Shown one piece after another: positions 1,090 through 14,802 of a stretch of 30,274 nucleotides of DNA. A program made the translations under genes and the position numbers. How positions within the stretch are numbered: the first letter of the stretch is position 1; each line of letters begins with the position of its first letter. Origin of the DNA: Candidatus Aenigmatarchaeota archaeon (GTDB taxonomy: Archaea; Aenigmatarchaeota; Aenigmatarchaeia; GW2011-AR5). Below the pieces are notes generated by a model that saw only the letters and a list, made by a program, of their open reading frames with translations, was not told the origin of the DNA and did no database searches. The stretch lies in assembly GCA_043799385.1 (NCBI GenBank), contig JAZDNV010000023.1:1-30274 (forward strand). The letters run 5' to 3'.

Positions 1090-1115
1090 TATAAATATAA
1101 AATTGGGGTGTTGGT

Positions 1116-1217
1116 ATGAAGAACGTGCATTACTGCGGAGACGGGTTCAAAGGCGAGGTAATAAAAGCCAAGGGCATAATCTTCTGCGGCTTTTGTGGGC
1201 ACGAGTTCAAAAGATAA
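1116..1217 (+). CDS. Zinc-finger micro-protein (33 aa, HxC...CxxCG), paralog of 13341-13442
   Basis: MKNVHYCGDGFKGEVIKAKGIIFCGFCGHEFKR*; SD-like GGGGTG upstream; 24/33 identical to a second copy in this window. Confidence 0.8.
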   Translation: MKNVHYCGDGFKGEVIKAKGIIFCGFCGHEFKR

Positions 1218-4248: not shown

Positions 4249-4548
4249 TCAACAAACACCTGATGGTCGATAGTATCGTGATGTGTCCAGTGGATATTCG
4301 GGCACCAGCAATACGCTGGCACAGTCGCACGCAGATTTCAGATAGCCCTTAACGCAATTCAGCAACCCGGTTATGTTGTCTGCAGCTGACTTGCTGTCGA
4401 ATGTACCGAGATTATCACTAACCAGACGGGTTGCGCCACTCCTTTTTTCCATGCAGAAAACAGGGTACCTCCCTAAAATCGCCACAGCTGCATCATCTCC
4501 GACCTTCTTTGGAAATTCGACTGTCATGTATACCATCCGATCCACCAT
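4249..4548 (-). CDS. Hypothetical protein (~95-99 aa)
   Basis: ORF downstream of and co-oriented with ftsZ; start at 4548 or 4536. Confidence 0.5.
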   Translation of the reverse strand: MVDRMVYMTVEFPKKVGDDAAVAILGRYPVFCMEKRSGATRLVSDNLGTFDSKSAADNITGLLNCVKGYLKSACDCASVLLVPEYPLDTSRYYRPSGVC

Positions 4549-4606: not shown

Positions 4607-5683
4607 TTATATGATTACCTCAATGCCAAGATCGCTCTCCCTGCTCTTTGCTTTCGCGTAGCCGCCTGCTGATTTGCCAAGGATGTACGGTGACTTTACT
4701 CCTGTTATTATCGTTATCACCTGTATCTTTCCCTGGTACTCTGGTATGACTCTCGCGCCCCACATGACCATTGCCGACGGGTCCATGTTTCTGGATACGG
4801 TTTCGCCTATGTCATTTATTTCGTCCAGCCTCATGTCTTCGCCGCCTATGATCTGTATCATGGCGCCTGTTGCTCCAGAGTAGTCTACGTCCAGTAGCGG
4901 ATGGGCGAGCGCTTTGCTGATCGCTTCTTTTGCACGGCATGAATCGTTTTCGCTCTCGCCGACGCCTATTGTTGCTACGCCGCCTGCCTTCATTATCGTC
5001 CTGACGTCTGCATAGTCTAGGTTAACTAATGACGGCTGCGATATCGTTTCTGTTATCCCTTTTATCATCGTTGCTATCAAGCCGTCGGCCACGCCGAACG
5101 CCTCTTTTAGCGGCCGATTACCGGCTAGCTCAACAAGCTTCTGGTTCTCTATCACGATTACCGTGTCGCAGACCTCGCGAAGCTTTGCCAGGCCTTCTTC
5201 GGCCTTGACGATTCTTGCGCCTTCTATCTTGAACGGTAGCGTCACAGCTGCGATAACGATTGAGCCTAGCTCTTTCGCTATATGCGAGACGACTGGAGCT
5301 GCGCCAGTGCCTGTGCCACCGCCTAAACCTGCTGTGACAAACAGCAAGTCGCAGTCTTTAAGCGCGTCTCTTAGTTCTCCTTTGGCTTCCTGAGCAGCCT
5401 TCATTCCTACGTCAGGGTAGCCGCCTGCACCCAAGCCACGGGTCAAATCACGGCCAATCAGGATTTTCTTTTGGGCTTTTATTGCAGCCAGATGTCTGGC
5501 GTCCGTGTTAGCTGCTATTGTCTCTGCTCCTGCAATGCCCATTTCTGTGAGCCTGTTTACAGTATTACAACCACCGCCGCCACAGCCGACAACCATTATC
5601 CTGGCTTGTTCGAACTGGAAGTTTTCGATGTCGTCCATATGTACAACCTCTATTTTTTTACGAAACATATTCTGCACAACCAA
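4607..5683 (-). CDS. ftsZ: Cell division protein FtsZ
   Basis: VVGCGGGGCN, ANTD, GLGAGG, GGGTGTG tubulin signature, NLDYADV. Confidence 0.97.
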   Translation of the reverse strand: MVVQNMFRKKIEVVHMDDIENFQFEQARIMVVGCGGGGCNTVNRLTEMGIAGAETIAANTDARHLAAIKAQKKILIGRDLTRGLGAGGYPDVGMKAAQEAKGELRDALKDCDLLFVTAGLGGGTGTGAAPVVSHIAKELGSIVIAAVTLPFKIEGARIVKAEEGLAKLREVCDTVIVIENQKLVELAGNRPLKEAFGVADGLIATMIKGITETISQPSLVNLDYADVRTIMKAGGVATIGVGESENDSCRAKEAISKALAHPLLDVDYSGATGAMIQIIGGEDMRLDEINDIGETVSRNMDPSAMVMWGARVIPEYQGKIQVITIITGVKSPYILGKSAGGYAKAKSRESDLGIEVII

Positions 5684-5865
5684 AATGCTTAAAAGCGTGG
5701 CTTCCTATGTTTTCCAATCTAAGAACAAACACAATCCTAGTCTTCTTTGGGTTCGCGCCAACGAACTCAAATCTTACTTTCATTTTCTACTTAAATAATT
5801 ATTCGTTATGCAGAGTATATTTTCAAAAATCATGCAATTTCAACCAGATTAGAAAACTGAGGCGG

Positions 5866-10555: not shown

Positions 10556-10900
10556 ATGGAAAGGAGAGGTTTTGGTCATAGCAGTTTCGACAGGTTTGAC
10601 CAGCCAAAGCCCGTTAAAATCGGGGAAGAATACGATGTAAAGATAACAGACGTTGGAGCAAAAGGTGATGGCATTTGCAAAGTAGAGAATTTCATCATCT
10701 TTGTCCCAAACGTGAAGAAAGGAGAGAACTGCAAGATAAAGATAAAGGAAGTTGCAAGAAAATTCGCGATAGCCGAAAAAGTAGGTTCTGCAGACGTTAA
10801 AGAGGAATCAGACGAAGGCAAGGAAGAAGATGAATTACCTGAGGTTGAAGAGAAACTGAAATTCAAGGATGTTGACGAAGACAAGGAAGACACTTTCTAG
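10556..10900 (+). CDS. Single TRAM-domain RNA-binding protein with acidic tail
   Basis: PVKIGEEYDVKITDVGAKGDGICKVENFIIFVP; SD GAGGTG. Confidence 0.9.
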   Translation: MERRGFGHSSFDRFDQPKPVKIGEEYDVKITDVGAKGDGICKVENFIIFVPNVKKGENCKIKIKEVARKFAIAEKVGSADVKEESDEGKEEDELPEVEEKLKFKDVDEDKEDTF

Positions 10901-13298: not shown

Positions 13299-13340
13299 AA
13301 TAAATATTGATTTAAGATTATTTAATAATCTTTCCATAGG

Positions 13341-13442
13341 CTAGTTTCTAAATTCTTTTCCGCAGAAACCGCAGAAAACAATGCCATGAGCTTTGATTAT
13401 CTCGCCGCGAAAACCGTCACCGCAATAATGTTTCTTTTTCAT
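13341..13442 (-). CDS. Zinc-finger micro-protein (33 aa), paralog of 1116-1217
   Basis: MKKKHYCGDGFRGEIIKAHGIVFCGFCGKEFRN*; SD GAGGTG; same length as and 24/33 identical to the paralog. Confidence 0.8.
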   Translation of the reverse strand: MKKKHYCGDGFRGEIIKAHGIVFCGFCGKEFRN

Positions 13443-13475
13443 TTTCAAACACCTCAAACTTCACCCGTCATCTGC

Positions 13476-13521
13476 AAAAAAAGAAAAAGGCAATGGCCGG
13501 GTCCCGACTGGGACCCGCTCG
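13476..13521 (-). terminator. GC-rich hairpin followed by a U-tract (terminator-like)
   Basis: Minus strand CGGGUCCC-AGUC-GGGACCCG (8-bp perfect stem), then UUUUUCUUUUUUU about 10 nt later. Confidence 0.5.
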
Positions 13522-13670
13522 GCAAAACACGATGCGCCATCGAAACTATACTGATGGTTCTTCTTTTTTCTTTCTTGACATAGGACGACCACCTTCACCT
13601 TCATTCGAGCCGGGCCGAAAGGGGCTTGCGCGGATCAGGTCTTGGAGCATATCGCCATCCGCTTGGGCTC
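13495..13670 (-). ncRNA. Candidate structured RNA / cis-regulatory leader
   Basis: GC-rich intergenic island with stems GAGCC/GGCUC, GCGGAU/AUCCGC, CCAUC/GAUGG and the terminal hairpin. The strand is inferred from the U-tract and the downstream gene. Confidence 0.45.
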
Positions 13671-13773
13671 TATACATCAATTGTTTTCTTCCCATTATCT
13701 GATTTTCCCAAGAGCGCATGAAAAGTGAACAGTGACATGGAATTTATATTAATATTGCCTACAATCTATCTCT

Positions 13774-14802
13774 ATGAAGATGCTGCTTTCTGACGAGACG
13801 CTGTTCAAGGATGAAAACGTTTTTGATTTCAGCTACCTTCCTGAGCAGTTCACGCATCGAGACGCGCAACTTAAGTCGCTGGCGATGTGCATAAAGCCGG
13901 CAATGCGCGGAGCTAAGCCGCTGAACGCATTATTATACGGACCGCCAGCGACCGGCAAGACGACTGCAATCAAGACAGTTTTTCAGCAGCTGGAGGAAGA
14001 AACGGACAGAGCGGTCGCCGTACACGTGAATTGCCAGATTTATTCCTCGCCGTTCCGCGTGTTTTCGGAAATTCATAAAAAGATGTTCGGCTATCTGCCG
14101 CCGGAGACGGGTGTGCCTTTTTCGAACGTTTATGACAAAATTTTTCAGAAGTTGTCGAAAGAGGGCAAGACGCTTATCGTTGCATTGGATGATCTCAGCG
14201 GAGGCGATGAGATTCTCTATAATATTATCAGAGCGCATGAAGCATTCCCGAAAGCAAAGGCAGCAGTTTTTGCCGTGATGCCTGAGAATGCTATGCATAA
14301 ATTAGACGGACGCGTGCGATCGGTCTTTCAGCCGCAGCAGATAAGCTTTCCGCTATACAATGCGGGCGAGATATTCGACATACTAAAAGGCAGAGCAGAA
14401 ATCGGCTTTTATCCAAACGTTATTTCTGATGACATTATAAGAAAGATAGCAACGATTGCTTTTAGGAAGAATGATTCACGATTTGGAATCGAATTGTTAA
14501 AGCAATCGGCTATGACTGCAGAAAAGAACTCATCAAGAAAGATTGGAATCATTGATGTGGATAATGCGCTAAAAGCAATGATGCCATTGAGAGCAGAACG
14601 CAGCAATGATGAAGAAGCAATATTGAATTCACTGGCAAAGGGACCGATGAAATCCGGAGAACTTTATGATTCGTTGAAAAATAAGATGAGCTATTCAGGA
14701 TTGTACAGAACGCTGAAGAAATTAAAGGAAGCGAATCTTATTGAGATAAAGGAAACGAACCTGAAAAAAGGAAAAACGAGAATAATATCAAAGAGGAAAT
14801 GA
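13774..14802 (+). CDS. cdc6: Orc1/Cdc6-family AAA+ ATPase
   Basis: F.....YLPE....R, Walker A GPPATGKT, VNC, Walker B IVALDD, FPLY...EIFDIL..R, C-terminal wHTH. Confidence 0.88.
   Translation: MKMLLSDETLFKDENVFDFSYLPEQFTHRDAQLKSLAMCIKPAMRGAKPLNALLYGPPATGKTTAIKTVFQQLEEETDRAVAVHVNCQIYSSPFRVFSEIHKKMFGYLPPETGVPFSNVYDKIFQKLSKEGKTLIVALDDLSGGDEILYNIIRAHEAFPKAKAAVFAVMPENAMHKLDGRVRSVFQPQQISFPLYNAGEIFDILKGRAEIGFYPNVISDDIIRKIATIAFRKNDSRFGIELLKQSAMTAEKNSSRKIGIIDVDNALKAMMPLRAERSNDEEAILNSLAKGPMKSGELYDSLKNKMSYSGLYRTLKKLKEANLIEIKETNLKKGKTRIISKRK

Follow-up and report, generated by a model that had tools for sequence, protein, structure and literature searches.

A predicted zinc-ribbon micro-protein family of one order of Candidatus Aenigmatarchaeota and the linkage of its core copy to the 23S rRNA gene

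A2L_zn_ribbon (PF08792) is a zinc ribbon of about 30 residues with two knuckles, the second of the form ...FCxxCG..., and we take it to be a member of the TFIIB/TFIIS-type zinc beta-ribbon clan. A different set of small zinc-binding proteins is formed by the C(P)XCG micro-proteins of Haloferax volcanii, such as HVO_2753 and HVO_0758, and Brz of Halobacterium. As the accessible parts of the reports describe them, these archaeal proteins are shorter than 70 residues, consist of a single zinc-binding domain, occur as several per genome and often go unannotated. Here we describe a family which resembles both. It is represented by two open reading frames (ORFs) of 33 residues in a stretch of 30,274 nucleotides from a Candidatus Aenigmatarchaeota archaeon (contig JAZDNV010000023.1 of assembly GCA_043799385.1, positions 1 to 30,274; hereafter the window). 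An earlier note on this DNA had seen in the pair a multicopy family under purifying selection. The present analysis adds that the family is restricted to one order, that its core copy is linked to the 23S rRNA gene, that one of its metal ligands appears to have changed from cysteine to histidine, and that a sister branch borders on A2L_zn_ribbon.

By kind the family is an archaeal one-domain zinc-finger micro-protein; by sequence it borders on A2L_zn_ribbon, from which it differs in several respects. The two window proteins score 15.9 bits (P0001) and 15.5 bits (P0002) against a PF08792 cut-off of 22.9 and align to model positions 13–31 only; their first knuckle is HxC rather than CxxC, and the family stands alone in one archaeal order instead of forming a domain of transcription factors. 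We know of no haloarchaeal C(P)XCG micro-protein that is linked to the 23S gene. The second knuckle of the window proteins, CGFCG, fits CxxCG, yet it is the only such motif they have (C24-G-F-C27-G), the other knuckle being H-Y-C-G, whilst two C(P)XCG motifs are characteristic of the haloarchaeal proteins, which belong to a different lineage. A relationship to the C(P)XCG proteins was not detected by sequence, a chain named 'Small CPxCG-related zinc finger protein' in the PDB giving an expectation value (E) of 1.3. The ribosomal zinc ribbons eS27, eL40, eL43, bL33 and bL36 resemble the family in size, basic charge, fold and strong conservation, but the family is multicopy with diverged paralogues. 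RpoP/Rpo12 (PF03604) is likewise a stand-alone zinc ribbon, of about 45 residues and of similar conservation in the same genomes; the window genome, however, has its own RpoP (G000:C13:14198-14284). The family is set apart by its HxC knuckle, narrow lineage, multicopy pattern and 23S linkage.

Coding status and distribution of the family

The two ORFs, MKNVHYCGDGFKGEVIKAKGIIFCGFCGHEFKR (copy 1) and MKKKHYCGDGFRGEIIKAHGIVFCGFCGKEFRN (copy 2), end in TAA and TAG respectively. As the earlier note had observed, they are of equal length and identical at 24 of 33 residues, and many of their codons differ silently. At the DNA level 32 of 102 nucleotides differ, giving 9 non-synonymous and 14 synonymous differences in sense codons, so that 14 of the 24 identical residues are encoded by different codons. 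By the Nei–Gojobori method the proportion of differing sites is 0.91 (saturated) for synonymous positions (pS) and 0.18 for non-synonymous ones (pN). The flanks are unrelated, as had been claimed, with 20 of 100 positions identical upstream (ungapped) and 28 of 100 downstream. The likeness of the two copies goes beyond chance, since in a six-frame search of the window genome (G000; 786 kb in 31 contigs, 91% complete) copy 1 recovered copy 2 at E 7.1e-15 and no third match at E<=10. Among the archaeal genes of the window are those for FtsZ, Orc1/Cdc6, S24e, S27ae, aIF5A, Kae1, RtcB and an H+-PPase.

The purifying selection proposed from the pair extends to the family, the median pS and pN of 35 homologous genes being 0.77 and 0.21. 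Because synonymous sites are saturated while the amino acids are kept, both ORFs are, on the evidence of their sequences, real and translated-looking genes. The rival possibility, that the pair represents a repeated RNA or DNA element or mere chance ORFs, is scarcely credible. The loci that lack expression coverage would fit it; the same substitution pattern, the maintenance across dozens of genomes of an open frame and of a start preceded by a Shine-Dalgarno-like motif, the lack of Rfam matches and the unrelated flanks all speak against it, to the point that it is already close to refuted.

This motif, GRGGTGT (GGGGTGT or GAGGTGT), is found 2–8 nucleotides (nt) ahead of the start in nearly all members, whose starts were themselves assigned from such motifs. 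It is rare elsewhere: GGGGTG occurs upstream of none of 500 long ORFs (>=200 residues) of the window genome, and only some 20 start codons in the whole genome follow G[GA]GGTGT, one of them that of a TRAM-domain gene at 10556. Two more of these ORFs, recognised by eye, are presumably thermosome and Alba. The motif suggests a full-strength Shine-Dalgarno site and may accompany high expression, and the micro-protein is probably abundant. No RNA contig lies over either micro gene, although contigs cannot show absence; one RNA run (X2) has contigs identical to the ftsZ region (4666-5740), to 4296-4534 and to 10691-10842. In one contig of this run position 4534 is joined to 4296, a step back of 239, at a depth of 56; a repeat next to ftsZ or an artefact of assembly may account for this.

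That the pair belongs to a real multicopy family was confirmed by profile searches, in which copy numbers and neighbourhoods were recorded. All relatives are metagenome-assembled genomes, of 0.4–1.2 Mb. Matches were found in 32 of 41 of them with a single protein and, with a profile of 20 sequences (A2), in 48 of 70 genomes of the order, at 0–4 per genome; two micro genes may lie 1 kb apart (L043) or in tandem (L055). In a sample of 121 genomes from the phylum, all 10 carriers were among the 14 that belong to the order, and the 107 others gave no match. When the sister sequences described below were included in a joint profile, 13 of the 14 genomes matched, as against one weak match (E 2.8e-4) in the 107. 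Among 1.84 billion representative proteins there were 70 matches at E<=1e-3, of which 63 are stand-alone proteins of 30–98 residues. The other seven are long proteins (139–3655 residues) with 3–11 matching stretches each, the best-scoring at the second-knuckle end of the profile, and no fused form was seen among the 70. On public contigs with close homologues, 14 of 34 loci are labelled Candidatus Aenigmatarchaeota, most others simply 'archaeon' and one Woesearchaeota; two bacterial contigs gave weak partial matches. On these sequence searches the family is a stand-alone one, of about 30–60 residues, confined to a single order of this DPANN phylum.

The suspicion that the genes were unannotated also proved right. 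Neither Pfam nor NCBIfam has a model that either window protein matches above cut-off, the sole Pfam signal being the sub-threshold one to A2L_zn_ribbon and NCBIfam giving no match at all. The exact window proteins are absent from a collection of 15 billion proteins, and 'hypothetical protein' is the only name borne by any homologue found there. The ESM Atlas returned unnamed clusters at 0.89–0.90, a PhnA ribbon cluster at 0.88 and nothing else; a PDB sequence search matched only a generic CxxCGK knuckle. Word searches of the open-access literature gave no description of the family, which is not proof of its being unpublished.

The tree built from 29 alignment columns of 35 core sequences is unresolved (0 starred branches) and served only for branch lengths and for the clustering of contexts. 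Copy 2 has an end branch length of 0 in this tree, carries the core-type motif ...CGKEFR and is 79% identical to a copy linked to the 23S gene; copy 1 is of the faster-evolving 'CGHEF' type. By sequence, then, copy 1 is an accessory paralogue and copy 2 is core-like.

Predicted fold and the change of a metal ligand

Modelling with AlphaFold2 on the family alignment predicts a three-stranded zinc ribbon with two knuckles (strands 4–8, 11–18 and 21–24; predicted local distance difference test, pLDDT, 84.6). Foldseek found no match to this model at E<=1e-3. VIA-align gave weak zinc-ribbon matches only, at Z 2.0–2.4, including a chain of an RNA polymerase–topoisomerase I complex, an African swine fever virus RNA polymerase subunit and a bacterial 50S protein of 46 residues.

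H5, C7, C24 and C27 are shared by all 51 sequences compared, a pattern that points to zinc binding with H5 as a probable ligand. The arrangement H5-x-C7 ... C24-x2-C27 departs from the four-cysteine form CxxC...CxxC. One zinc ion would be held by H5 and C7 of the first knuckle (HxCG) and by C24 and C27 of the second (CGFCG). The weaker profile matches within the order form a sister branch (C4) which has a canonical first knuckle, as in ...HCxxCK[DE]GR...FCGFCGKEF, and which is preceded by the same upstream motif, GGGGTGTGG. In the alignment of the two branches C7 falls on the first cysteine of the sisters and G10 on their second, whilst the invariant histidine of the window's branch (HC3) stands two residues before C7. 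For this reason the HC3 branch is best regarded as a derivative of a C4 ribbon. The ancestral form would have had a CxxC first knuckle, its second cysteine becoming glycine (G10) and the histidine two residues ahead of the first taking over as ligand. The two branches coexist in at least one genome (G012), and the joint profile found no C4 copy in the window genome.

Besides the ligands, G8, G10, F11, G13, F23 and G28 show little or no variation. This bears on the possibility that the micro-protein serves as a zinc buffer, store or metallochaperone, for which four invariant ligands in 33 residues, a strong Shine-Dalgarno motif and several copies per genome could be cited. Such a role is very unlikely. 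These near-invariant surface residues take no part in metal binding and imply instead a specific macromolecular interface; moreover each copy offers one metal site, and no metal-transport or Zur-type gene lies beside any copy.

The core copy behind the 23S rRNA gene of relatives

The ends of 23S genes were located in 37 of the 70 genomes of the order, 22 of them from the window's own family, the 3' end having been defined with Rfam at one locus (L038); context counts were obtained by comparing coordinates from separate searches. In 17 of the 22 a member of the micro-protein family lies 222–1163 nt downstream of the 23S 3' end on the same strand, and since the contig ends behind the gene in two more (G047, G050), the proportion is 17 of 20 assessable genomes. 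The linked copy of G012 is a variant with a loop insertion. Elsewhere in the order a linked copy was found in 2 of 15 genomes (G062, G033), with one ambiguous case (G060). The genes beyond the micro gene vary between genera, indicating that it is the adjacency to 23S itself that is conserved. In L038 the interval from the 23S end to the micro gene gave no Rfam match. At no fewer than 9 of 16 linked loci, inspection by eye suggested a TATA-like box some 85–125 nt upstream. The 23S genes of relatives are themselves interrupted, their Rfam matches falling into separate pieces (L038:1-2996; also L032, L034, L040 and L044), and ORFs between these pieces seem, by eye, to carry LAGLIDADG-like motifs.

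The linked copies are the slowest-evolving of the family. They have short branches, and their median pN is 0.09 (16 copies) as against 0.24 in 19 others, at a median pS of 0.77–0.78. Across five genera they are 70–86% identical, compared, in the same genomes, with 56–72% for eS27, 71–83% for the ribbon of TFB and 77–80% for RpoP. In conservation the linked core copy therefore equals RpoP and the TFB ribbon.

Its small size, basic character (isoelectric point 9.0–9.3), strong Shine-Dalgarno motif and almost wholly conserved surface lead to the idea of a structural mini-subunit which would dock on a large machine. Because the slowest-evolving copy lies directly behind 23S in relatives, the most likely machine would be the large ribosomal subunit or its 23S rRNA, with the core gene apparently under its own promoter. 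We tentatively favour a role of this kind, in which the micro-protein would act on the large subunit or its rRNA, either as a ribosomal protein peculiar to the lineage or as an assembly factor. A fuller version is more doubtful: that in this order the HC3 micro-protein, derived from a C4 ribbon and encoded by its own transcription unit behind 23S, belongs to the ribosome as a lineage-specific protein or is an obligate partner of 23S rRNA, and that the paralogues, both window copies included, serve alternative ribosome subunits or are moonlighting copies. There is a precedent in aS36, a lineage-specific archaeal ribosomal protein found by cryogenic electron microscopy, as the accessible portion of a 2026 paper describes it.

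Several observations weigh against a ribosomal role. An intact region behind 23S lacks the micro gene in 3 of the 22 genomes (G010, G024, G011). Neither window copy lies beside rRNA; the 23S gene of the window genome is unassembled and a third, linked copy is possible. The family is multicopy, and its paralogues occur in non-ribosomal settings, namely a string of membrane-protein and regulator genes, a cluster of PLD-like, GT4 and orphan membrane proteins, and the side of an Orc1/Cdc6 gene. The C4 branch is not linked to 23S and is often found beside pyrG (6 of 20 loci). A2L_zn_ribbon, the one curated model whose cut-off is passed by any relative, is of a transcription-factor type. Comparison with local zinc-ribbon families by hhalign is not decisive either, no probability exceeding 53%: the best full-length alignment of the family (A8), a point in favour of the ribosome, is to eS27 (47% over 29 columns), that to RpoP covers 11 columns around the second knuckle (53%) and that to TFB ribbons only 6 (9.9%). 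No sequence scanned reached the cut-off of a ribosomal Pfam model, Ribosomal_S27e and Ribosomal_L37ae giving one match each far below cut-off. The eS27 model (PF01667) does not match the window proteins, and the window genome encodes its own eS27 (G000:C4:15411-15566).

Replacement of eL40 was considered and dropped. The eL40 model (PF01020) does not match the window proteins at E<=10 and is not among the 25 most-matched families for either 51 or 18 sequences at E<=1. It finds nothing in the window genome, exceeds its cut-off in none of the 70 genomes of the order and matches none of the 121 from the phylum, while it is detected in four archaeal control genomes. Since most genomes of the phylum lack the micro-protein, the absence of eL40 is not specific to carriers; in this phylum eL40 appears either lost or diverged beyond recognition.

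The comparison with RpoP and TFB raises the question of whether the partner might be the transcription machinery. A free-standing ribbon of TFIIB/A2L type could sit on RNA polymerase as an extra subunit or act as a modulator or decoy of TFB, and might tune rRNA transcription. A2L_zn_ribbon is the commonest Pfam match: at E<=1 it is found in 15 of the 51 HC3-family sequences and, in the superfamily alignment, in 14 of 18 rows. Its cut-off is passed by 2 of 12 C4 sequences, P0063 with 29.2 bits and L021:1477-1587 with 24.8, whereas the remaining 10 stay below. The equal conservation of the linked copy with RpoP and the TFB ribbon, the place of RNA-polymerase-associated ribbons among the weak fold matches (Z 2.2–2.4) and the sharing of a gene string by copy 1 and a transcription regulator would all be in keeping. 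Nevertheless such a role seems unlikely. The window proteins reach the A2L model through its second half alone, profile matches between zinc ribbons carry little information outside the knuckles, and the alignment to local TFB ribbons is negligible. The genomes, furthermore, already possess RpoP (4 of 5 relatives), TFB and a separate small ORF with a TFIIB-type ribbon. The last, of 39–53 residues and present besides TFB in five relatives (L101, L102, L103, L104 and L105, in G018, G016, G003, G004 and G014), exceeds the cut-off in two of the five and forms a distinct stand-alone family.

Accessory copies and their neighbourhoods

Table 1. Positions of the two micro-protein genes and of neighbouring features in the window.
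Feature	Position	Strand	Remarks
Cys/His-rich small ORF, 54 residues	677..841	+	opens the conserved gene string around copy 1
CxxC...CxxC small ORF, 53 residues	928..1089	+	ends 26 nt upstream of copy 1
Shine-Dalgarno-like heptamer GGGGTGT	1105..1111	+	4 nt before the ATG of copy 1
Micro-protein copy 1	1116..1217	+	33 residues and stop; predicted HC3 zinc ribbon; 'CGHEF' accessory type
Protein with four transmembrane segments (4-TM), 152 residues	1280..1738	+	sub-threshold DUF7471 (PF24283) match
Double winged-helix regulator, 175 residues	1710..2237	+	HVO_0163 N-terminal helix-turn-helix (HTH; PF24266), 68.3 bits, cut-off 31
Beta-helix/NosD-like protein, 341 residues	12312..13337	-	N-terminal hydrophobic segment; first ATG 3 nt after the stop of copy 2
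Micro-protein copy 2	13341..13442	-	33 residues and stop; predicted HC3 zinc ribbon; slow-evolving 'CGKEFR' core-like type
Shine-Dalgarno-like heptamer GAGGTGT	13449..13455	-	6 nt before the ATG of copy 2
Orc1/Cdc6 paralogue, 342 residues	13774..14802	+	divergent from copy 2, 331-nt spacer

Copy 1 lies in a tightly spaced string of genes on one strand (Table 1), in the order small zinc-finger ORFs, micro-protein, DUF7471-like 4-TM protein and HVO_0163-type regulator. The match of the 4-TM protein to DUF7471 scores 17.8 bits (cut-off 27), and all six orthologues give sub-threshold matches to the same model. An orthologue of the regulator is present in 30 of the 70 genomes of the order, and in eight of these, from five genera (G000, G012, G013, G014, G015, G024, G053 and G054), a micro gene lies 0.7–1.2 kb upstream. 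In G011 the string occurs without the micro gene, right after the 23S gene. A third recurrent accessory context comprises a secreted PLD-like protein, a GT4 glycosyltransferase and orphan membrane proteins (L043, L045, L048 and L054, and also L004, L014 and L047); several orphan and multi-TM proteins of this cluster have no Pfam match.

These contexts suggest another reading, in which the paralogues are context-specific adaptor or regulatory micro-proteins, each ribbon binding a different partner, and the 23S adjacency is no more than inherited synteny. Copy 1 would bind either the DUF7471-like membrane protein or the HVO_0163-type regulator. Models for such a role exist: the accessible parts of the reports present Haloferax zinc-finger micro-proteins and Brz as regulators, and those of a recent preprint describe CdpC, in which zinc ribbons of the C3H and C4 types bind both FtsZ1 and the membrane, a precedent for adaptors. 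Several diverged paralogues per genome, three recurrent non-ribosomal contexts, the repetition of the micro/4-TM/HTH string in eight genomes, and micro-gene stops that at several loci lie 0–3 nt from the next ORF or overlap it are all consistent with adaptors. On the other side, the 4-TM/HTH pair has no detectable micro gene upstream in 22 of the 30 genomes, the downstream genes are mostly unrelated orphans, and the conservation of the 23S-linked copy is better suited to one fixed, universal partner. On balance we consider the adaptor role rather unlikely.

The remaining genes of the copy 1 string are themselves small and rich in cysteine. DNA corresponding to 677-841 is conserved upstream of the micro gene at three other loci (L018, L011, L006) and has no Pfam match, and a homologous Cys/His-rich ORF of 60 residues stands ahead of the 4-TM/HTH pair at a fourth (L084:865-1047). 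These ORFs of 54–60 residues share the pattern C..C ... [AC]FC..H[YF], and in G011 a member lies behind 23S in the absence of a micro gene. By eye, a possible ribbon-helix-helix ORF lies between the 54- and 53-residue ORFs, and an ORF similar to the latter directly precedes the micro gene (1596) of L013. Altogether five or more small Cys-rich ORFs share a strand within the first 2.5 kb of the window, 115-309 and 2280-2414 among them.

Copy 2 and the Orc1/Cdc6 gene are divergently arranged, as they are at another locus (L053). The Orc1/Cdc6 protein of the window is a short paralogue with a close homologue (46%) in only one of five relatives, G009, the other four having 29–32% identical Orc1/Cdc6 proteins in open frames of 407–433 residues. 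The spacer between copy 2 and its Orc1/Cdc6 neighbour (13443-13773) has 51–53% GC, adjoins stretches of 19–29% GC and contains, on the strand of the micro gene, a GGGTCCC-N4-GGGACCC hairpin followed by a run of T. No clear repeats were found in it. Rfam gave no match in the window at gathering scores and nothing meaningful in 13300-13850, and the 236-nt spacer upstream of copy 2 showed no significant fold (z -0.9 for the minus strand and -2.0 for the plus strand). Given these fold values and the lack of clear repeats, there is no case for a structured RNA or origin repeats beside copy 2. The idea that the family marks proximity to an origin was likewise dropped, as an Orc1/Cdc6 homologue lies 116–149 kb away from the 23S-linked copy, though on its contig, in G016, G003 and G009 and is found on another contig in G014 and G004.

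Micro-proteins of fewer than 50 residues are routinely missed by gene callers, and both window copies are absent from the collection of 15 billion proteins. The family described here is nearly universal in one DPANN order, is conserved to the degree of RpoP or the TFB ribbon, and has a core gene kept beside 23S. Judging from the alignments, it would also be a clear case in nature of a zinc ribbon having exchanged a cysteine ligand for a histidine at a different position, and its 33 residues bring it within reach of tests on peptides. DPANN archaea have reduced genomes and, to our knowledge, the composition of their ribosomes has not been determined experimentally. In this setting a zinc ribbon linked to the rRNA gene is a candidate for a missing or novel component of translation or transcription.

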